A stretch of DNA of 64,000 nucleotides, taken from Candidatus Binataceae bacterium. Lineage in GTDB: Bacteria; Desulfobacterota; Binatia; Binatales; Binataceae. The stretch is taken from contig JBOHWL010000123.1 of assembly GCA_050736615.1 (NCBI GenBank), forward strand, positions 27,384 to 91,383, written 5' to 3'. Under the pieces are notes generated by a model. It was not told where the DNA came from and ran no database searches. It saw nothing but the letters and a program-made list of their open reading frames with translations. Below are positions 2,983-52,441 of the stretch, piece by piece; the stretch's first letter is position 1, and every line of letters starts with the position of its first letter. Position numbers and translations under genes: made by a program.

Positions 2983-3181
2983 GATGAGGCGCGCCGCTAC
3001 ATAGGCGTTGGGTGGGCTTCCGCCTTGAAGCTGAGCCCTTCAGGATGATAGCCTGATGGCGTGGGCCGCTGCCCACTTTTTTGTTCGTTCGCCGCTTGTT
3101 CCAGGAAAATTATCGCCCGGTTGGCCCTGGAGGCGAATACGCCGAGGTAAACCGCCGTTGTTGGTGTTGCAAGTTAATCCG

Positions 3182-3637
3182 GTGGCGAAAAAGGTCATCG
3201 AAATGCTCGAGTCTCATGTCGAGCGGCAAGGTTTCGAATTAGTGACGGTGGAATTCCGCAAGGGTACGCGTAATTCGTTGCTGCGCTTGCTGATTGATCG
3301 GCCCGAGGGCGGGGTGACGCTGAGCGACCTGGAACGCTTAAGTCCGGTTTTGGGCGACTTGCTCGATGTCTATGACCCGGTGGAGGGGCATTACACGATG
3401 GAGGTATCATCGCCGGGGATTAACCGGCCGTTGGTGAAGCTCAGCCATTTTGAAGCGTTTCAAGGACAACGGGTGCGGATCCGGACCAATCATCCGCGCG
3501 ACGGGCGCAAGTTATTCGAAGGTACATTGGTGGGGGTTAATGCCGAGGGGGTCGAGTTAGACGACGAGCAGAGTCATAGCCGCCAAGCCTTCGCGTTCGA
3601 CGAGATCAAAGGGGCCAATTACGAGCATACGTTTTAG
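3182..3637 (+). CDS. rimP: Ribosome maturation factor RimP
   Basis: GFELVTVEF...LRLLIDRPEGGVTLSDLERLSPVLGDLLD...YTMEVSSPGINRPL matches RimP. It lies immediately upstream of nusA. A GTG start at 3182 is assumed; the ATG at 3203 is the alternative. Confidence 0.85.
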   Translation: MAKKVIEMLESHVERQGFELVTVEFRKGTRNSLLRLLIDRPEGGVTLSDLERLSPVLGDLLDVYDPVEGHYTMEVSSPGINRPLVKLSHFEAFQGQRVRIRTNHPRDGRKLFEGTLVGVNAEGVELDDEQSHSRQAFAFDEIKGANYEHTF

Positions 3638-3812
3638 CGTCGATTCAAACGAGACGAAGAACGTGACGGCAGCGACGGCGCGGCGGATAAGTGATTAATT
3701 TAGACAAAATGACGCAGCTAACTGCCATAAAACGCCCGGCGTGTCCTCGAGTGCGGCCAGACCGCCGCTAGTATGGTCCGACGGGTGGGATTATGTGTCT
3801 TGCGGAGGCGAT

Positions 3813-5282
3813 ATGTCGGTCGATCTGAATCGTGTGATCGAGCAGGTGTCGAAGGAAAAAGGGATCGACAAGACGATCGTCGTCAATGCGGTCGAGGAGA
3901 TGATGCATTCCGCGGCGCGCCGTACGTTTGGGCCGGACCGCAATATCGAGTCGCGCTACAACCCGGATATCGGCGAAGTCGAACTGTTCGAAATCAAGAC
4001 CGTGGTCGAGCAGGTTGCCAATCCAGCTTCGGAAGTGGAGCTTGAAGAAGCGCACAGCCGGTATGATCCGGAGGCTCAGGCGGGTGACGAAATCCTGATT
4101 AAGCTCGATACCGCCACGATGGGCCGGATTGCGGCGCAAGCCGCCAAGCAGAATCTCATCCAGCACATCCGGGACGCTGAACGCAAACAGATTTACAACG
4201 AGTTCAAGGACCGCAAGAGCGAGGTCGTCTCGGGCATCGTGCAGCGCTTCGAGCGCAAGAACATGATCGTGAACCTGGGCCGCACCGAGGCGATTTTGCC
4301 GGAGAAGGAACAGATTCCGCACGAGCGCTATCGGCAAGGTGACCGTATTCGGGCGCTGATCGTGGACGTTGATTTATCTGAAAAAGGACTTTCGATTGTG
4401 CTTTCACGCACCTCGAACGCCTTTCTCTGCAAATTGTTCGAACAGGAAGTGCCGGAAATCTACGAAGGCATCGTCGAGATTCGCCAATGCGCGCGTGAAC
4501 CCGGCGGGCGCGCTAAAGTCGCGGTTTACTCCAAGGACAACGATGTCGATCCCGTCGGCGCGTGCGTCGGCATGAAGGGTACCCGCGTGCAGTCGGTGGT
4601 CCAGGAATTGCGCGGTGAAAAGATCGATATCGTGCCGTGGACCGATGATCAGGCCGAGTTGGTATGCCGAGCACTGGCACCCGCCAAGGTTTCCAAGGTG
4701 ATCATCGACGAAGACGAGCATGCGATGGAAGTGATTGTCCCCGATGATCAGCTTTCGCTCGCAATCGGCAAGCGCGGCCAGAACGTCCGCCTTGCTCATC
4801 GGCTGTCCGGATGGAAGCTCGACGTGCGCAGCGATTCGGAGGCTGAAGAGGAAGCGCGCGCGGCGCGCGCGTCGCTCAACGCGATTCCCGGCATCGGAGA
4901 CATCAATGCCGAATTGCTCTACCAATGGGGGTTCCGGTCCTCTGAACAGTTGGCTGAAGCCAACGAGAATAATTTTGAGGTGGAAGGGATCAGCCCTGAG
5001 CGCGCCTATCAGGTGATCAACGCGGCGCGCGAATGGGTGGCAAGCAAAAGACGTCTGGAAGAGGAGCGCGCCGCCGCCGCCGCGGCGGCCGCGGAAGCGG
5101 ATGCCGGTGTTGAAGAAAATGGCGCGGCGGAGTCCGCCTCCGATTCCAAGGATGCGGATGGGAATGACTATCGCGCCGCCGCGGGTGACACTGCCGGCAC
5201 AACCGAAAACGTTGAAAGCCGTCCCGATGAGGCCGCGCCGAGCCCGGCGACGGATACTGAAGACGCCGATGTCAAGCCATAG
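3813..5282 (+). CDS. nusA: Transcription termination/antitermination factor NusA
   Basis: NusA N-terminal domain (VIEQVSKEKGIDKTIVVNAVEEMM), S1 and KH domains (GMKGTRVQSVVQELRGEKIDIV), acidic C-terminal tail. Canonical rimP-nusA-infB context. Confidence 0.95.
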   Translation: MSVDLNRVIEQVSKEKGIDKTIVVNAVEEMMHSAARRTFGPDRNIESRYNPDIGEVELFEIKTVVEQVANPASEVELEEAHSRYDPEAQAGDEILIKLDTATMGRIAAQAAKQNLIQHIRDAERKQIYNEFKDRKSEVVSGIVQRFERKNMIVNLGRTEAILPEKEQIPHERYRQGDRIRALIVDVDLSEKGLSIVLSRTSNAFLCKLFEQEVPEIYEGIVEIRQCAREPGGRAKVAVYSKDNDVDPVGACVGMKGTRVQSVVQELRGEKIDIVPWTDDQAELVCRALAPAKVSKVIIDEDEHAMEVIVPDDQLSLAIGKRGQNVRLAHRLSGWKLDVRSDSEAEEEARAARASLNAIPGIGDINAELLYQWGFRSSEQLAEANENNFEVEGISPERAYQVINAAREWVASKRRLEEERAAAAAAAAEADAGVEENGAAESASDSKDADGNDYRAAAGDTAGTTENVESRPDEAAPSPATDTEDADVKP

Positions 5283-5286
5283 ACCG

Positions 5287-5556
5287 ATGCGCACATGCCT
5301 AGGATGCGGGCGCCGCGATTTCAAATCCGCGATGGTGCGGATGGCGGCGCGCGACGGTAAGGTGGCGCTCGATACCGAGGCGCGCTTGCGAGGGCGGGGT
5401 GGCTATCTTCATGTCAATGCGGAATGTGCGCACAAATTCGAGAAGAGCAAAATCAAACAGTTCAGATCGCTCAAGCTGACGATAAGCCCGGAAGAGCGTG
5501 GAAAGATAACTCAGCGGATTCGAACGCGGCTGGATAGTGAGACCGCGCTCGCATAA
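5287..5556 (+). CDS. ylxR: YlxR/DUF448 family RNA-binding protein
   Basis: [19 protein letters not shown]...GRGGYLH.N.ECA is the YlxR signature. It sits between nusA and infB as in many bacteria. Confidence 0.8.
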
Positions 5557-5566
5557 TATAGATCAG

Positions 5567-8563
5567 ATGGCTCGAAAGCGAATTAAGACCCTTGCCACCG
5601 ATTTGGGCGTGTCCGTTGAGGACGTGCTCGCAAGCAGCAGACGGCTGCGTTTGGCCCACGCGCATTCCGAATCCAGTGTGCTCTCGTCCGAGGATACCGA
5701 ACGGATCAAAGCCGACCTCGACGAACAGGCTCATCGCGCGGCTCTGATGCGGCGTGAAACCGTGGTTGAGACTAGCGCCGGCAAAGTGGTTGAGAAGCGG
5801 CTCAACGCCACCGTGATGCGGCGACGGCATACCGAGCCGGAACCGTCGCAAGCGGCGCCGGTCGAGGCTGAACTCTTCCATTTCGAAGTTGAACAAAGCC
5901 GTGACGAGGAACCGTTCGTCGCGCCAGTCTTCGAAGTACCTACGCCCGCGGAGTCCGACCTTGCGGAATTGCCAGCATTGGAAATGATTGAACCCGTTCA
6001 TGCGGAAACCGCCCAGTCGGCGACTGACGTTGAGACCGAAATTGTGACGCCGGCGGCGGCCGAGCTGACGGAGCCGCAAACCCCGACGGACTTGCCGCCC
6101 GAAGAGAATGTCAACGGCATCGCAACCAAACTTACGACAGCCGAGCGTCAGCCGGAGTTGGATAAAGGTTCCGGAGCCGCGGCCCGGACCCTGCCCGCCG
6201 AGGTCAAAGCCACCCCTGCTCAGTCGGCCGTTGAACGTGAATCACACGGCCGGCCGGTGCCCGCGCGCAGTTCTCCCACGACGCCGCCCAGCGCGGCGTC
6301 GGGCCCGCGTGGCGCTGGCACGCCGGTGCCGCGCACAAGTGAGTCGTTGACGCCCGGCCGTACGATTAACCTGACCGGTGCCGCGCATGCTTCGGCGCCG
6401 AGTCTCGACGACGGGCCGCGTGGTCCCAAAGTGCTCGGCAAGATTGATTTGCGCAAACCAGCGCCGCGTCCGGCACCGCCGACCACGGCACGTCCGGGCA
6501 CCGCGTTGGGACGCCCGGCGGGACGTCCATCGCCTGCGGGAGGGATGCCGGAACCATTCGCTCCGCCACCTTCACCCGACCAGGTGAAGCCGGGTGCGCG
6601 TGCAATCAAAAAGAAGAAGGTCGTCAAGAAGGGGACGACGGATGTCGCGGCCGAACGCGAGATGCGCGGGATGCGCGTCCCGAAGAAGCGTCGCGCCCTG
6701 CCCGGCAAGGAACAGAGAAAGACCGAAATTACGACGCCGAAGGCCTCAAAGCGCGTCGTGCGTATCACTGAGGGTGTGACCGTCGGCGATCTCGCGCGCA
6801 ATATGGGTGTCAAGGCAGCCGAGATTATCAAGAAATTGATGGGCCTGGGCGTGATGTCGACGCTCAATCAGGTGCTCGACGTTGACACCGCGACATTGGT
6901 CGCCAGTGACTTCGGTTACAGTGTTGAAAACGTCGCTTTCGATGCCGAATCCGCCATCGCTGAAGAAGGCGAGGAGGTGGCGGAGGGCGAAGCGGTGACG
7001 CGCCCACCGGTGGTCACGGTCATGGGCCATGTGGACCACGGCAAGACTTCACTCCTCGACGCGATCCGTCATACCAGCGTGACCGAGCGGGAATTTGGCG
7101 GGATCACGCAGCATATCGGCGCGTACACGGTTGAGGCCAACGGACGCAAGCTCAGCTTCGTTGATACGCCCGGCCATGAAGCGTTTACGGCGATGCGCGC
7201 GCGTGGCGCAAAGGTCACCGATATCGTGATCCTGGTGGTGGCGGCCGACGAAGGCGTGATGCCGCAGACGGTTGAGGCGATTAATCATGCGCGCGCCGCC
7301 GGCGTGCCGATTATCGTCGCGATCAACAAAATCGATCGACCCGAGGCCAACGTCGATCGGGTTAAGCAGCAGCTCACGGAACATGCACTGATTCCCGAGG
7401 ACTACGGCGGCGATACTATCGTGGCGCCAGTCTCGGCACGCACTCGCGAGGGTATCGACCATCTGCTCGAAATGATTCTGCTGCAAGCCGACCTGATGGA
7501 CCTGAAGGCCAATCCGGCTCGTTCGGCGCGCGGCACCGTGGTGGAATCACAACTCGACCGCGGCCGCGGTCCGGTGGCGACCGTGCTGATCCAGGAGGGC
7601 ACGCTGCATCAGGGCGAGCCATTCGTCTGCGGCATGACCTATGGGCGCGTGCGCGCGATGCTTAATCATCTGGGGCAGCGGGTGACCGAGGCGGGCCCTT
7701 CCACGCCGGTCGAAATTTTCGGATTATCGAGTGTGCCTGAACCGGGCACCGCGTTTATCGGCGTCGCCGACGAGGCCAAGGCGCGCCAGGTCGCTGAATT
7801 CCGTCATTCCAAACAGCGCGAAGGCGTGTTGCAAAAGACCAGCCGCGTCTCGCTTGAGTCTTTGAGCGAGCGGATGCTGGCGGGAGAGGTCAAAGAGCTG
7901 CGCGTCATTATCAAGGGCGACGTCAACGGTTCAGTCGAGGCGGTGGCCGACTCGCTGCAGCGCTTGTCAACCGAAGAAGTCAAGCTTGACCTGATTCATA
8001 AATCGGTCGGCGCGATTTCCGAAACCGACGTGAGCCTGGCCTCCGCCTCCAAAGCGATCATCATTGGGTTCAACATCCGCCCCGAGCCCAAAGCGGCGCA
8101 ACTTGCCGAAAAGGAAGGGGTTGAAATCCGCCTCTACACCATAATCTACGAAGCGATCAACGACATGCGCGAGGCCATGGAAGGATTGCTGGCGCCCACC
8201 TACCGCGAGAGATCTTTGGGCCGCGCCGAGGTTCGTCAGACCTTCGTCGTCCAGGGCAATACCGTGGCCGGTGCGATGGTGCTCGAGGGTAAATTACTGC
8301 GCGGCGCGCGCAGTCGCCTGGTGCGCGATGGGCGGGTGGTATGGGAAGGCAGGATCGGTTCGCTCCGGCGGTTTAAAGATGATGCTCGCGAAGTTCAGAG
8401 CGGTTATGAATGCGGCGTCGGGCTGGAGAATTTCAACGATGTCAAACCCGGTGACGTGGTCGAAAATTTCGAAATGGAGACGGTTCTGCGCAAACTCTCC
8501 GCGCCCCGGCAGGAGTCAATCCGCGGCCAAAGTGCGGTGATGGAGAAGCAGCTCCACACCTGA
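5567..8563 (+). CDS. infB: Translation initiation factor IF-2
   Basis: Long low-complexity N-terminal region, then a GTPase domain ([30 protein letters not shown]) and the IF-2 C-terminal domains. Confidence 0.95.
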
Positions 8564-8684
8564 GCCCGGTTTAACCGCGGCAACGCTTGACCTTCAGTCG
8601 TCCGCCGATACGTGCACAGGTTCGGTAACCAAGCGACCTGCTGCGGCGGGCGACGCGAAGTGGTTGGGGCGGGAGGGGCTATCC

Positions 8685-8972
8685 ATGGTCGTTGGTGTAC
8701 TGCAACTGACGCTGTTCCTGCCGGAAAATCATTCGCTCAAGGGAAAAAGGCAGGTCTTGCGCGCGATTAAGGATCGTGTGCGCAACAAATTCAACGTGTC
8801 CATCGCCGAGGCGGACAGTCACGATTTATGGCAGCGTGCCGAACTGGGCATTTGTCAGGTCGGCAATGACCGCGCCTTTGTTGATTCGGCGCTGCGCACG
8901 GTCGTCAACTTCATCGATTCGCTAGGCTTGGCGCCGATTGGTGGCGAGCGCCTCGAAATTTTAAACTATTAG
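8685..8972 (+). CDS. DUF503 family protein (YlxP-like)
   Basis: MVVGVLQLTLFLPENHSLKGKRQVLRAIKDRVRNKFNVSIAE is typical of the DUF503 proteins encoded between infB and rbfA. An RBS GGGAGGGG lies upstream of the ATG at 8685. Confidence 0.75.
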   Translation: MVVGVLQLTLFLPENHSLKGKRQVLRAIKDRVRNKFNVSIAEADSHDLWQRAELGICQVGNDRAFVDSALRTVVNFIDSLGLAPIGGERLEILNY

Positions 8973-8990
8973 AACAAGTTCGTGGCAGCC

Positions 8991-9175
8991 GTCATTCCGA
9001 GAGTGTGTGAGGATTTTGTTTTTCTGTCATTCCGAGCACAGCGAGGAATCCCGGATGTTTCTGCTTTTCCTGTGTTTTTTCGGGATTCTTCACTTATTTG
9101 AACGCACCTCGCGGACTCGTTTGCTCGCTCCGCCTCCGGCTACGCTAATGGCGGCCTCCGTTCAGAATGACACAA
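8991..9175. repeat. Palindromic MITE-like repeat, copy 1 (GTCATTCCGAG...TTCAGAATGAC termini, GAATCCCGG...CCGGGATTC core hairpin)
   Basis: About 50 bp nearly identical to 26900-26950. The arm 9101-9170 is the reverse complement of 31750-31830. Lies in the DUF503-rbfA intergenic spacer. Confidence 0.8.
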
Positions 9176-9245
9176 AAATTCACGCATTCTTAGGACTGAG
9201 CGGACGCGGCTTTGGCGCCCGGCGTTGCCGCGCTAGAATTGAGCC

Positions 9246-9599
9246 ATGCTGGGCGAAGTGCGACGGCCCGAACGGGTCGCCGAATTGATCTTACGCGAAT
9301 TGTCGCTGATGTTGTTGCGGGACCTGAAAGATCCGCGCTTGCGCGGAATCACTATCACTTCGGTGCGGATGAGCGATGATTTACGTCTCGCACGCGTTTA
9401 TTTTTCCCATCTATCGGGAACCGCGCATGCGCCCGAGGCAATCGCCGGCTTCCATAGCGCGGCTGGATTTATCCGCCGTCAAGTCGGACGTGCGCTAGGC
9501 TTGCGCTATACGCCCGAACTGGAATTCCAATTTGACCCGGGTCTGGAAAAGGCGGCGCGCATCGACGCTCTGCTGCGCGAATCCCGCTCCAGAGAATGA
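9246..9599 (+). CDS. rbfA: Ribosome-binding factor A
   Basis: RVAELILRELSLMLLRDLKDPRLRGITITSVRMSDDLRLARVYFS is RbfA. Confidence 0.9.
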   Translation: MLGEVRRPERVAELILRELSLMLLRDLKDPRLRGITITSVRMSDDLRLARVYFSHLSGTAHAPEAIAGFHSAAGFIRRQVGRALGLRYTPELEFQFDPGLEKAARIDALLRESRSRE

Positions 9600-9687: not shown

Positions 9688-10617
9688 TTGATGGATGGAA
9701 TTATCCTGGTCGATAAGCCGGCCGGTCCGACTTCCGCTGAAATCGTCCGCAAAATCAAGGCGGCCATCAGGGCGCACTCGCGTTCGGCGCCGCGCGTGGG
9801 TCATCTGGGCACGTTGGACCCGTTCGCCACCGGCCTTTTGCCCATCATGGTGGGTGAAGCAACCAAGCTGGCGCCTTTTATTCAGGCCGGTGAGAAGGAA
9901 TACGAGGGCACAATCGCGCTGGGAGTCGAAACTGACACCCTCGATCCAACTGGAACGCCGGTCCGGACTGCGGCGGTGCCAAGCTTGGACGCGGCTCGGC
10001 TGACGCGTCTGGCCGCGGCGTATAGTGGCAAAATCGAGCAGGTCGCGCCGATCTTTTCGGCAATCAAGCGCGGTGGAGTGCCACTCTACAAGCGCGCTCG
10101 CCAGGGCGAGGAGATTGTCCCACCCCGGCGCTCGGTCGAGATTATGCGGCTCGAACTGGAGGCGGCCGATCCCGCACATTTGCGCTTTTTCGTAGTGTGT
10201 TCCGGCGGCACCTATATTCGTTCGCTTGCTCGCGACATTGGCGCGGAACTTGGCAGCGCGGCGCATCTGGCGTCGCTGCGCCGGATGCGCAGTGGCGGTT
10301 TCCGTGTCGAGCGCGCGTGCTCGTTCGAACAAGTGCTGCGTGGTTTGGAAAGCGGCACGGGCCCGCCGCTCATCGCTCCGCGCGAGGCGTTGCCCACGCT
10401 TGCGGAGGTGGAAATCGATGCCGCGCGCGAAGAACGCCTGCGTTATGGCGATGCGCGCGCGCTTGACGGCATGGTGCCGTCCGGCGCCGGCTTGTTCAAG
10501 GTAATTGCGCGTGGCGAGCTTGCCGCCATCGCGCAAGCGAACTCGCGCCTCACCGCGACTATCGCCCGGATTTTCAACCGGGAGACCGGGGGCGAACCTC
10601 AGATTGGCATCCGATAG
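9688..10617 (+). CDS. truB: tRNA pseudouridine(55) synthase TruB
   Basis: GIILVDKPAGPTS...VGHLGTLDPFATGLLPIMVGEATK is the catalytic-Asp motif of TruB. Confidence 0.92.
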   Translation: MMDGIILVDKPAGPTSAEIVRKIKAAIRAHSRSAPRVGHLGTLDPFATGLLPIMVGEATKLAPFIQAGEKEYEGTIALGVETDTLDPTGTPVRTAAVPSLDAARLTRLAAAYSGKIEQVAPIFSAIKRGGVPLYKRARQGEEIVPPRRSVEIMRLELEAADPAHLRFFVVCSGGTYIRSLARDIGAELGSAAHLASLRRMRSGGFRVERACSFEQVLRGLESGTGPPLIAPREALPTLAEVEIDAAREERLRYGDARALDGMVPSGAGLFKVIARGELAAIAQANSRLTATIARIFNRETGGEPQIGIR

Positions 10618-26786: not shown

Positions 26787-26992
26787 TGTCATTCTGAGAG
26801 TGTGCGAAGATTTTGTTTTTCTGTCATTCCGAGCGCCACCAGCGGGAGCCGCTCCGTGCGGCGAAGCGAGCAGGCGAGTCGGCGAGCTGCGTATGAAACC
26901 GAGGAATCCCGGATCTTTTTGCTTTTCCTGTGTTTTTTCGGGATTCTTCACTCATCTAAACGCACGTCGCAGACTCTGACTCAGAACGCGAC
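26787..26992. repeat. Palindromic MITE-like repeat, copy 2
   Basis: Begins GTCATTCTGAGAGTGTGCGAAGATTTTGTTTTTCTGTCATTCCGAGC (near-identical to 8991-9040). Core GAGGAATCCCGGATCTTTTTGCTTTTCCTGTGTTTTTTCGGGATTCTTCAC matches 9045-9095. Confidence 0.8.
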
Positions 26993-31561: not shown

Positions 31562-31746
31562 CGCATTTCCTCAAATTCTACAACACCACGTGGAAGCGAA
31601 TATGAATTATCCAGCGCGCAGCCACTCAAATGCCAGTAACAAGGGTCTTGAAGGGGCTGCGCGCCATTGCCATCCGTGCGCGCGCTCGCTTCGGCTGGCG
31701 CCTCGCCCGTTCGGTCGGGATGACAAACCTCTGCACAAACCCATAT

Positions 31747-31905
31747 GTCATTCTGAACAGAGTCTGCCATTAGCGTAGCCATAGGCGGAGCGAGCAAACG
31801 AGTCTGCGAGGTGCGTTTGAAGAAGTGAAGAATTCCGGTTAAAAGCCCAAAAAATCGAGAAGATCCGGGATTCTTCGCTGTGCTCAGAATGACAAAATCA
31901 CTTCT
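31747..31905. repeat. Palindromic MITE-like repeat, copy 3 (opposite orientation to copy 1)
   Basis: GTCATTCTGAAC...GAAGAATTCCGG...CCGGGATTCTTCGCTGTGCTCAGAATGAC followed by AAAATCACTTCTTGTGCAGAGCTTCCC. The left arm is the reverse complement of 9101-9170. Confidence 0.8.
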
Positions 31906-31977
31906 TGTGCAGAGCTTCCCTAGTGTGGCGTCTATAAAATATCAGTGACAAATGCCGACGGATGGATTCCCTTTTCT

Positions 31978-42294: not shown

Positions 42295-42590
42295 TGACTT
42301 TCGTCATTTCGAGCGGGCTGCCGAAGATCCTTCGCTGCGCTCGGAGCGTGTGAATTTTTTTGTGCCATCCTGAGCCGGCGAGCAGCGTGAGCGACGTCGA
42401 AGGACCTCGCGCGGCGCTCCTTGCGTATTCAGCGAGCATTCGCTATTTGACGCGTGCGGGAGCACGCGAGGTCCTTCGCTTCGCTCAGGGATGACGGAAA
42501 AAAGTGCACGCACTGACCGCTTCGCGATTTTCCGCGGAGGTCCGAAAATTTCACACATTTTCGGATGACCGAAGGGAATTGTGCAGGCGT
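42295..42590. repeat. Composite/degenerate member of the palindromic repeat family with a nested second palindrome (CCATCCTGAGC...GCTCAGGGATGAC)
   Basis: GTCATTTCGAGCGGGCTGCCGAAGATCCTTCGCTGCGCTCGGAGCG plus CGCGAGGTCCTTCG arms mirrored around 42420-42470. Ends with ...GAATTGTGCAGGCGTTCCC, similar to the CTTGTGCAGAGCTTCC tail of other copies. Confidence 0.6.
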
Positions 42591-42629
42591 TCCCAAGCCT
42601 AACCGCTGCTCAAGAAGGTACCCGCCGCG

Positions 42630-48515: not shown

Positions 48516-48705
48516 GCCGAGGCTCCTTGCCTTTGGAAACGCGGCAACTCGCGTTGGATTTCCAACCGCTCAAATCATTACTCGCTTATGCCGATGAAGA
48601 AAAACGCTCGCGCGCCGCGTGACCGGCGGTGCGCCGCGACTCAAGAGCCAATCGGTCGCGGCGCCGCTGGTTAACGCTCTTAGGGAACTTCCGCACAAGC
48701 AAATT

Positions 48706-48830
48706 TGTCATTCTGAACGGAGTCTGCGAAGTGAAGAATCCCGGCAAAAAGCCTGCATAAATAAGAAGATCCGGATTCTTCGCTGCGCTCAGAATGACAT
48801 AATCACCCCTTGTGCAGAGCTTCCTTAGAC
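48706..48830. repeat. Palindromic MITE-like repeat, copy 5 (near-perfect palindrome)
   Basis: GTCATTCTGAACGGAGTCTGCGAAGTGAAGAATCCCGG....CCGGATTCTTCGCTGCGCTCAGAATGAC followed by ATAATCACCCCTTGTGCAGAGCTTCC. Confidence 0.85.
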
Positions 48831-51605: not shown

Positions 51606-51654
51606 CGGAGCCGCGCTGCCCGGCTTGCTAGGAAGCTCTGTGCGGACAGACCAT

Positions 51655-51775
51655 GCTGTCATTCTGAGCGGTAGCGAAGAATCCCGGATCTTTTTGCCTT
51701 TTCAAGGCATTTCCCCGGGATTCTTCACTTCGCAGACTCCGTTCAGAATGACCAATGGGTTTGTGCAGGGTCCGC
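51655..51775. repeat. Palindromic MITE-like repeat, copy 6
   Basis: GTCATTCTGAGCGGTAGCGAAGAATCCCGGATCTTTTTGCCTTTTCAAGGCATTTCCCCGGGATTCTTCACTTCGCAGACTCCGTTCAGAATGAC followed by CAATGGGTTTGTGCAGGG. Confidence 0.8.
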
Positions 51776-51778
51776 AGG

Positions 51779-52441
51779 GTGAAAACCACCGAAGCGACCC
51801 TCGAGACGGTGCGCATCCGCTTGTCCGCACTGATCGGTGCGGGCGCGGAGTTGGCGGCGGGCCGCTACATCTCCACGGCATCCCGTCAAGAGTTCGTTGA
51901 CGGCGCGGAATTTCGCGGATGGCGCGCTGGTTGTATCGCTTTTCTAAAAGAGGCGCTGGCGCCGGATAGTCCCTATCTCGAAGAATTTGAGTCCTGCTGC
52001 GACAGCCCCTACTTGAGCGCGGTCGCGCGCGGCCGGGCTATCTTGTCCGCGGTGCGCGAATATATCGACGCCGGTCCACTGGCGCGCGTCGAGGAGTTGG
52101 TCGCGGCCGAAGTCTTCAACGATCTGATCGCCATTGCATGCCGCTTGGTCGATGAGCGGCGCGGCGCCGCCTGCGCGACGATCCTGGGCGCCGTGCTGGA
52201 GGATCTGTTGCGGCGGCTGGCGCGCGCCCGCCGCCTCAGCTTCCACGAGCATCACGATGGCCTGGCGACCCTTAATGGCAAGCTCGCCGAGGCGCACGTC
52301 TATGGCGCAGACCTCGAGAGTCGGCTCCGGCAATGGGCGCGGACGCGGGAGCATGCGGCGGTCGGTCACGCGCCCTCGGATAGCGAAGCGCGGCGGATGG
52401 CGGCGTTCGTGCGCGAGTTCATGGCCGACTATTTGGCCTAG
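51779..52441 (+). CDS. Hypothetical protein
   Basis: ORF 51755-52441. The first ATG lies at the edge of the repeat, so GTG 51779 is proposed. No recognisable family. Codon usage is consistent with coding. Confidence 0.35.
   Translation: MKTTEATLETVRIRLSALIGAGAELAAGRYISTASRQEFVDGAEFRGWRAGCIAFLKEALAPDSPYLEEFESCCDSPYLSAVARGRAILSAVREYIDAGPLARVEELVAAEVFNDLIAIACRLVDERRGAACATILGAVLEDLLRRLARARRLSFHEHHDGLATLNGKLAEAHVYGADLESRLRQWARTREHAAVGHAPSDSEARRMAAFVREFMADYLA

Follow-up and report, generated by a model that had tools for sequence, protein, structure and literature searches.

The spacer between the DUF503 gene and rbfA in a Candidatus Binataceae genome is largely filled by a copy of a dispersed palindromic repeat, referred to here as copy A. 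The spacer lies in a stretch of 64,000 nt (contig JBOHWL010000123.1, positions 27,384 to 91,383), the whole of which is called the window, within a plus-strand gene order identified by Pfam as rimP-nusA-infB-DUF503-rbfA-truB. Copy A is a lineage-specific insertion of an already known kind of repeat in the poorly studied phylum Binatota. With a probability of about 0.6, it represents a non-autonomous inverted doublet of two tagged hairpin units with mosaic inserts, similar to REPINs (repetitive extragenic palindromic (REP) doublets forming hairpins) and BIMEs (bacterial interspersed mosaic elements), in which the units would be single-stranded DNA (ssDNA) sites of the Ssn type and the whole would be a tolerated passenger before rbfA.

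In Neisseria, the sequence NTS (CGTCATTCCCGCGMAVGCGGGAATCYRG) is bound by SsnA, a 94-aa single-domain GIY-YIG protein, as ssDNA only and is cut a few nucleotides upstream (Chenal et al. 2025, PMC11893778). On the preferred reading, the doublet came to lie between DUF503 and rbfA in the line of descent of this genome, with each unit able to form a 21-nt single-strand hairpin that has a 5' YGTC tag and a C right after the stem. The units would work at the ssDNA level, where a small single-domain GIY-YIG nuclease of the Ssn type would bind and cut them and may also account for their spread. This role appears the most likely one because the architecture of the unit is that of Neisseria NTS/dRS3, of the Ssn-related motifs (SRM) and of CGTC-tagged REPs. 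The insertion would be tolerated, with rbfA retaining an ancestral promoter-like signal downstream of it. REP, ERIC and Correia hairpins are known to protect 3' ends or to be cut by double-strand RNase. A transcript of infB-DUF503 that runs on into the repeat would contain a very stable hairpin, which could, as a side effect, protect the 3' end of this message or serve as a double-strand RNase substrate.

A repeat family and its insertion before rbfA

When one mismatch is allowed, the motif GTCATTCYGAGC matches the window 14 times against 0.82 expected, and none of 100 shuffles reached this number. Three of the matches lie inside the DUF503-rbfA spacer (8991 and 9026 on the plus strand, 9160-9171 on the minus strand). 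Copy A spans 8991-9190, approximately 200 nt. Outside the spacer, the related copies B, C, D and E were located by blastn and alignment, together with a divergent region F (Table 1), and all of them are intergenic on a crude gene map of the window. The motif matches, the blastn copies and the fold described below bear out the sequence-only reading, which had placed a dispersed palindromic repeat of mobile type between DUF503 and rbfA. Its measurements needed small corrections. The spacer (8973-9245) is 273 nt long and not 274, the repeat reaches about 15 nt beyond the proposed end at 9175, to ~9190, and the statement that the spacer is almost entirely occupied, right in kind, was slightly generous for ~200 of 273 nt (73%).

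To compare the spacer among relatives, an RbfA scan of species-representative genomes was used, which yielded 27 loci (L001-L027) from Candidatus Binataceae and from delta-/proteobacterial metagenome-assembled genomes (MAGs) with a similar RbfA. Of these, 26 were compared, and the spacer was measurable in 25, as L007 gave no DUF503 match. The best-matching relative shares 84% identity in RbfA and 94% in DUF503. The GTCATTCYGAGC motif occurs in the DUF503-rbfA spacer of none of the 26 related loci. Of the 25 measurable loci, 21 have the two genes 19-131 nt apart, and in the closest relative, L001, the distance is 80 nt. Alignment A2 with L001-L003 identifies ancestral sequence to the left and right of a block that spans 8991 to ~9185-9190 of the window, and removal of this block leaves an ancestral spacer of ~78 nt. 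Because the relatives lack the block while its flanks align as ancestral, the comparison supports an insertion specific to the lineage of this genome. The same comparison bears on the possibility that the sequence is a conserved leader or spacer and not a mobile repeat, in which case relatives were expected to share it and to have no repeats elsewhere. Since the sequence is absent from the spacer of relatives and has further copies in the window and in metagenomes, this possibility is refuted and is given practically no weight; nothing was found in its favour.

Hairpin arms and nearby GIY-YIG genes

Positions 9000-9190 fold into one long imperfect hairpin of -68.8 kcal/mol as RNA (z -3.69; 0 of 200 shuffles as good) and of -34 kcal/mol as DNA (z -3.41), and the strong hairpin noticed earlier in the spacer thereby passed a folding check. 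Its outermost part is formed by AGAGTGTGTGAG (9000-9011), which pairs with TTCACGCATTCT (9179-9190). Its inner hairpin, GAGGAATCCCGG (9043-9054) paired with TCGGGATTCTTC (9080-9091), closes a loop of 25 nt; it had been described before, although its right half reads TCGGGATTC and not CCGGGATTC. Between these parts, an S-arm on the plus strand (9025-9054) and an L-arm on the minus strand (9080-9172) fold together as a doublet, which is the arrangement of a REPIN. The L-arm is interrupted by a mosaic insert of ~55 nt (~9096-9150) that is common to copies A and C and contains the module AACGAGTCCGCGAGGTGCGTT (9101-9121). In copy B, an insert of ~65 nt interrupts the S-arm, and the right end is missing. 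The junction between the partial arm at the head of copy A and the outer stem recurs in copy B (26788-26798), and the partial arm therefore belongs to the copied composite unit. The string CTGAGCGGA at 9197-9205 fits a remnant of an interrupted arm and ancestral spacer equally well.

[quoted passage not shown] The description of the repeat as MITE-like was thus loosely right with respect to its ends. Because the outer TIR is absent here and the arms are hairpins of REP type, REPIN/BIME-like is a better label.

Covariation supports a hairpin fold of the arm. A total of 216 arms were collected, anchored only on GTC...GAGC-N3-4-GCGA, and all eight versions of the flanking pentamers are complementary: ATTCT/AGAAT (134 arms), ATTCC/GGAAT (35), ATCCC/GGGAT (9), ATCCT/AGGAT (8), ACCCT/AGGGT (3), ATGTT/AACAT (2), ATGCT/AGCAT (1), and ACGCT/AGCGT (1). 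Folded, the arm consists of a stem of 5 bp, then a tandem G.A/A.G, a GC/GC step, and lastly a triloop that is mostly GNA (GAA, GGA, GCA, or GTA). In the 81 distinct arms, 92.9% of cells are paired, compared to 14-57% in slid controls, and double-change cells number 56 versus 14.8 +/- 2.9 in shuffles (0/500). Pairing from arm to arm needs no match within one arm, yet the halves match, and the arm is therefore a hairpin in its own right. The base before GTC is mostly T or C in the distinct arms, GTC itself being the search anchor, and a C follows the stem in at least 70% of arms (column 26 of alignment A3), as in copy A, where GGAAT-C has this C at 9050. The core GCGNAGC is the very stable DNA mini-hairpin reportedly described by Hirao and colleagues. 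A looser pattern, GAGC N3 GCGA with no GTC anchor, gave so many chance matches in coding sequence that it was dropped. Readings of CUGA...GA in the arm as hammerhead-like or as a K-turn were rejected upon inspection, as core positions or the bulge are missing. Rfam gave no match in the whole window at the gathering threshold, and only chance-level miRNA matches at an E-value threshold in the spacer and eight canonical loci.

A link between arms and nucleases was found in metagenomes. The L095 protein, used as a tblastn query against 736 kb of arm-bearing metagenome loci, detected four small GIY-YIG genes, of which two were confirmed by Pfam (PF01541, E 5e-14 and 5e-15); the solved structures nearest to the L095 protein are UPF0213 proteins. 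All four genes lie less than 100 nt from arms, while 5.1% of the 736 kb is that close (p ~1e-4, or nearer 1e-3 if the near-duplicates L055 and L133 count once). The order is arm, gene, and reverse arm in L095, and reverse arm, gene, and arm in L055 and L133. The L095 reading frame enters the right arm, so that the protein ends in ...NRDSSLRSE.

The taxonomic spread of the arm was sampled through plasmids and metagenome contigs. A 29-nt arm pattern is present on at least 120 metagenome contigs. Among the matches listed, loops and partner arms are highly diverse (including GGATGAC and GGGTGAC types). With the canonical arm doublet as query, blastn detected the arm on a plasmid of Granulicella tundricola (Acidobacteriota; L171, NC_015065, 245634-245670), between cobM and a cobalt-precorrin-6A reductase gene, on a Calothrix plasmid (Cyanobacteriota; L172, AP025020), where the L-type arm GTCATGCTGAACGGAGCGTAGCGGAGTGAAGCATC is paired with an S-type arm, and on a Planktothrix plasmid (Cyanobacteriota). 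The family crosses phyla, since its arms occur on acidobacterial and cyanobacterial plasmids. A blastn search of plasmids with the whole 205-nt element gave no match.

Table 1. Positions of cluster genes, parts of copy A, further family copies, and features of related and metagenome loci (L numbers denote loci outside the window)
Feature	Position	Strand	Remarks
rimP	3056-3637	+	Pfam
nusA	3741-5282	+	Pfam
infB	5537-8563	+	Pfam
DUF503 gene, upstream neighbour of the insertion	8664-8972	+	PF04456, E 8e-31; translation
Spacer, ancestral left part	8973-8990	+	Alignable with L001-L003; alignment A2
Copy A, partial arm GTCATTCCGAG	8991-9001	+	47 nt 93.6% identical to 26788-26834
Copy A, left outer stem AGAGTGTGTGAG (9000-9011) and T-rich linker GATTTTGTTTTTC	9000-9024	+	Just 5' of the tagged arm; folds; inverted repeat I1
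Copy A, S-arm TGTC-ATTCC-GA-GC-ACA-GC-GA-GGAAT-C-CCGG	9025-9054	+	21-nt hairpin; 5/5 stem pairs
Copy A, variable central loop of the doublet	9055-9079	+	Alignment A1; loops vary among metagenome copies
Copy A, L-arm GTCATTCTGAACGGAG...GTGAAGAATCCCGA, long arm type	9080-9172	-	90% identical over 88 nt to copy C
Copy A, right outer stem CACAAAAATTCACGCATTCT	9173-9190	+	Partner of 9000-9024; folds; inverted repeat
Arm sequence			TGTCATTCTGAGCGAAGCGAAGAATCCCGG
Spacer, ancestral right part	9191-9245	+	-35-like and -10-like sites; alignment A2; promoter scan
rbfA	9246-9599	+	PF02033, E 2e-31
truB	9688-10617	+	Pfam
Copy B	26788-26990	+	blastn 26788-26976, 91-94% identity; head junction as in copy A
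Copy C, long form	31724-31919	-	blastn 31746-31894, 90% over 88 nt; opposite orientation
Copy C, outer TIR CAAACCTCTGCACAAA / GGAAGCTCTGCACAAG	31724-31739 and 31904-31919		Adjoining CTAG
Region F, divergent arm relatives between convergent genes	42303-42608		GTCATTTCGAGC; CCATCCTGAGC...GCTCAGGGATGAC
Copy D, short form, divergent flanking genes	48684-48824	-	blastn 48706-48799; outer TIR adjoining TTAG/CTAA
Copy D, outer TIR	48684-48699 and 48809-48824
Copy E, short form, two same-strand flanking genes	51626-51785	+	blastn 51657-51752; S-arm 51657-51685; L-arm on minus strand, end at 51752
Arm-flanked single-domain GIY-YIG genes (100-110 aa)	L095 7681-8055; L055 1900-2420; L133 900-1460; L160 1545-1750
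L095 GIY-YIG gene itself	7722-8054
Second hairpin family, related loci	L009 5513-5534, 6471-6493; L010 6432-6454; L027 5846-5868, 6511-6533
Second hairpin family, metagenome contig	L068 5441-5463

Effect on rbfA and alternative explanations

A consensus scan of the spacer detected a single promoter-like site, TTGGCG-16-TAGAAT at 9212-9239 (-35-like 9212-9217, -10-like 9234-9239). This site is part of ancestral spacer sequence on the downstream side of the insertion, which sits 20-25 nt upstream of the -35, and it is kept in relatives without the repeat. The -10-like TAGAAT ends 6 nt before the ATG of rbfA, for which there is no Shine-Dalgarno sequence. The window and ~15 of the 26 related loci combine a TAnnAT 6-8 nt before this ATG with a T-rich -35 region. 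rbfA probably has its own promoter at this candidate site, giving a leaderless mRNA, and it probably does not depend on read-through from DUF503, because the conserved -35/-10 is located in ancestral spacer downstream of the repeat and its predicted start falls on the ATG. The effect of the insertion is most likely small, since rbfA would have its own promoter and the insertion sits upstream of the -35. The consequence for the operon would likewise be little, as palindromic repeats between co-oriented genes are common and rbfA seems to be self-promoted.

The surroundings of copy A vary among relatives. Independent copies of the family occur in the infB-DUF503 spacer of L009 (5309-5400) and L027 (~4540-4610), which indicates that the cluster has been hit repeatedly and tolerates insertions. 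Extra genes separate DUF503 from rbfA in L005 (5443-5895), L006 (4699-5896), and L027 (5191-5760). They include a Usp gene in L005 and L006 (PF00582, E 1e-32 and 1e-29), an opposite-strand DUF6968 gene in L027 (E 2e-13), and a minus-strand open reading frame (ORF) of no recognised family. Judged from these gene orders, the DUF503-rbfA junction is a site of gene-content flux. The cluster had been taken for an essential co-transcribed operon; the same-strand gene order stands, and the premise is weak at this junction, where relatives have extra genes, including an opposite-strand one. Around DUF503 and rbfA in relatives, and in one metagenome contig, there is another family of hairpin repeats, CTGAAACC-loop-GGTTTCAG (often GGGAAGTCTGAAACC...GGTTTCAGTAA), which is absent from the spacers of the window. 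In the window, the likely ATG of the DUF503 gene is at 8685, with GGGAGGGG in front of it. A 93-aa ORF with a GTG start (9007-9288) crosses the repeat into rbfA and is treated as spurious, because it has no Pfam match and overlaps rbfA.

Further observations concern the other copies. In region F, the arm variant CCATCCTGAGC...GCTCAGGGATGAC carries outer GCGTGTGAATTTTTTT stems, and a degenerate outer TIR at 42578-42593 closes the region. A separate 21-nt module, AACGAGTCYGCGAGGTGCGTT, lies within the long-arm insert of copy A (9101-9121, minus strand) and of copy C (31797-31817, plus strand); in copy C it is part of a stretch bounded by the direct repeat GCAGACTC, and in the relative L027 it also occurs outside any arm (~4755-4775). 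The GGAACCTCTGCACAAG shell was seen in the metagenome loci L063, L099, L113, L116, L127, L141, and L169, and in L127 two GGAACCTCTGCACAAG-bounded elements abut and share one CTAG.

Such shells would be explained if the family were a classical MITE, derived by deletion from an IS with a DDE transposase of an IS5-like family and moved by cut-and-paste at its TIRs, with the arms as mere cargo. In copies C and D and in many metagenome copies, the inverted 16-nt GGAACCTCTGCACAAG has its ends 107-110 bp apart, bounds an element of ~115 bp, and is nearly always beside CTAG or TTAG, and copy B retains a degenerate left TIR. Presumably, GGAACCTCTGCACAAG resembles the IS5 end GGAAGGTGCGAATAAG and its surroundings the IS5 target YTAR. 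However, copy A has this TIR on neither side, and its right boundary (~9185-9200) is too diverged from L001-L003 to define a target-site duplication. A search of the window and of 1.3 Mb of fetched loci, which was not exhaustive, gave no transposase gene with GGAACCTCTGCACAAG ends, and most metagenome copies of the arm lack the outer TIR (among the matches listed). Covariation of the arms and their conservation across phyla would also be needless for cargo. We therefore regard a classical MITE as unlikely.

Selection for a cis-regulatory RNA appears somewhat less likely still; such an RNA could be an attenuator, a terminator, a processing site for RNase III, or a stabiliser of 3' ends by which infB-DUF503 becomes uncoupled from rbfA. 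The very stable RNA fold (-68.8 kcal/mol, z -3.7) and the same-strand flanking genes would suit such a role, for which Correia, ERIC, and REP elements are precedents, as also described in PMC3733652. Nevertheless, the repeat is missing from this spacer in 26 of 26 related loci, and family copies are found at unrelated sites, including between divergent and between convergent genes. The plus strand of the spacer has no terminator-like site in the consensus scan, which leaves the attenuator that had been suggested with no positive evidence, and the inner hairpin has a long loop (25 nt). No Rfam match was obtained, and rbfA has its own conserved promoter-like signal downstream. A promoter inside the repeat that drives rbfA had been suggested as well and is now highly improbable. 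Some small repeats of other bacteria bear outward promoters, and the T-rich stretches of copy A could serve as an UP-like element for a downstream promoter, but no sigma-70-like site is present in 8991-9190 on either strand, and the sole site (9212-9239) is ancestral and shared with repeat-free relatives. The regulatory roles proposed for the repeat thus find no support in the sequence signals that were scanned.

The reading of copy A as an inverted doublet of Ssn-type units is the preferred one, and several points weigh against it. There is no GIY-YIG gene in the 64-kb window, and a cognate nuclease in this organism is only a candidate. The S-arm of copy A has the loop ACA instead of GNA and its L-arm is interrupted, and for these reasons copy A may be a poor or dead substrate. 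The IS-like TIR beside CTAG/TTAG that encloses copies C, D and E suggests that a transposase has spread at least some members of the family. The repeat may also have a regulatory effect on infB-DUF503 or on rbfA. Regarding covariation, most loci were fetched with a pattern fixing ATTC/GAAT, and only the other arms are free of this bias; these still pair. Finally, the published SRM pattern HGTCWYN(0-2)YYVSBRHN(0-5)WNVSBRGN(0-2)RNCYNB has 0 matches on both strands of the window. The cause is the tandem GA inside the stem, which the pattern does not accommodate, and in the absence of a match the arms are called relatives of SRM and of CGTC-tagged REPs and not members by the operational definition.

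Relation to known repeat systems

Literature searches with the strings GTCATTCTGAGC and CTGAGCGAAGCGAAG matched unrelated primers only, and the papers on Binatota that were consulted contain nothing on repeats. Among known systems, MITEs derived from IS5 are similar to copies C and D and to many metagenome copies in their 16-nt TIRs beside CTAG/TTAG and their length of ~115 bp, whereas copy A lacks such ends, and the search of the window and of the 1.3 Mb of loci gave no parent IS. Correia elements of Neisseria and ERIC/IRU elements of enterobacteria are likewise palindromic repeats of 100-200 nt between co-oriented genes. As they form long hairpins in the mRNA into which they are transcribed, they serve as models for ideas on RNase III processing and message stability. 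Correia elements, however, have defined TIRs with a TA duplication, and processing of these two kinds of element was shown experimentally, while copy A is known from DNA only and has no defined duplication.

REPINs and BIMEs are reportedly associated with RAYT transposases, in work said to be that of Bertels and Rainey in 2011, Nunvar in 2010, and Ton-Hoang in 2012. The present family shares with them a mosaic of different unit types and an enzyme gene flanked by units. It differs in its tag, which is YGTC instead of GTAG, and in the linked gene, which encodes a GIY-YIG nuclease instead of a Y1 HUH transposase. No RAYT was noticed beside the arms, for which no systematic search was made.

CGTC-tagged REPs have a CGTC or TGTC tag (also CCTC), a stem of 8-9 bp starting with A-T, a loop of 4-5 nt, and a 3-nt tail; they are mostly inverted dimers, have no known dedicated transposase, and include the dRS3 repeats of Neisseria (Di Nocera, De Gregorio, Rocco 2013, PMC3733652). 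The arms described here carry CGTC/TGTC as their tag and have a stem of nine positions that opens with A-T and then T-A, a short loop, and a C-rich 3-nt tail, and their units are chiefly inverted dimers between genes, often after coding regions. In contrast, their loop has 3 nt and two of the stem positions are non-Watson-Crick G.A, and the phyla covered in PMC3733652 do not include Binatota, Acidobacteriota, or, for CGTC-tagged REPs, Cyanobacteria.

The Ssn system offers the functional model. In Neisseria, the genes are arranged as NTS-ssnA-NTS, the C after the palindrome is the base that matters most for SsnA binding, and thousands of SsnA homologues are flanked by SRM (PMC11893778). The family arm resembles NTS, dRS3, and SRM in its 5' YGTC tag and shares with NTS the stem ATTCC...GGAAT. 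It is 20-21 nt long with a C directly 3' of the palindrome, is multi-copy and intergenic, and in metagenomes borders small GIY-YIG genes, on one side or on both. As regards the features that describe SRM, copy A has a 5' HGTC tag (TGTC at 9025-9028), a hairpin-forming semi-palindrome of 21 nt within the range of 20-50 nt, and a C right after it. For a further feature of SRM, a motif-flanked gene encoding a single-domain GIY-YIG protein of the cd10448 kind, candidate counterparts are seen in the metagenome contigs L095, L055, L133 and L160 and none in the window. The family differs in the inner stem of its arm, with tandem G.A, GC, and a 3-nt GNA loop, in units that are mostly S/L heterodimer doublets with mosaic inserts, and in its Binatota host, and it is known here from sequence alone.

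It is possible, and we suggest it tentatively, that the GA/GNA arm YGTC-ANNCY-GA-GC-GNA-GC-GA-RGNNT-C stands for a large branch of Ssn-type targets in Binatota, Acidobacteriota, and Cyanobacteriota of soil and sediment that is missed by the SRM pattern, and that in Binataceae it also occurs inside an IS5-like MITE shell of ~115 bp. If so, a single element would combine two systems of mobility or recognition, and this element lands repeatedly in spacers among infB, DUF503 and rbfA. Repeats with arms of the GA/GNA type are under-detected by the SRM pattern as published. A cognate GIY-YIG nuclease, if it cuts the arm, would extend the Ssn tools for ssDNA by a further specificity. Such repeats produce spurious ORFs (e.g., 9007-9288) and can break assemblies, and their recognition is useful for the annotation of MAGs. 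The comparison places an abundant and hitherto unnamed repeat of soil metagenomes, from Binatota and others, beside the NTS/SRM-Ssn system, with a fold supported by covariation.

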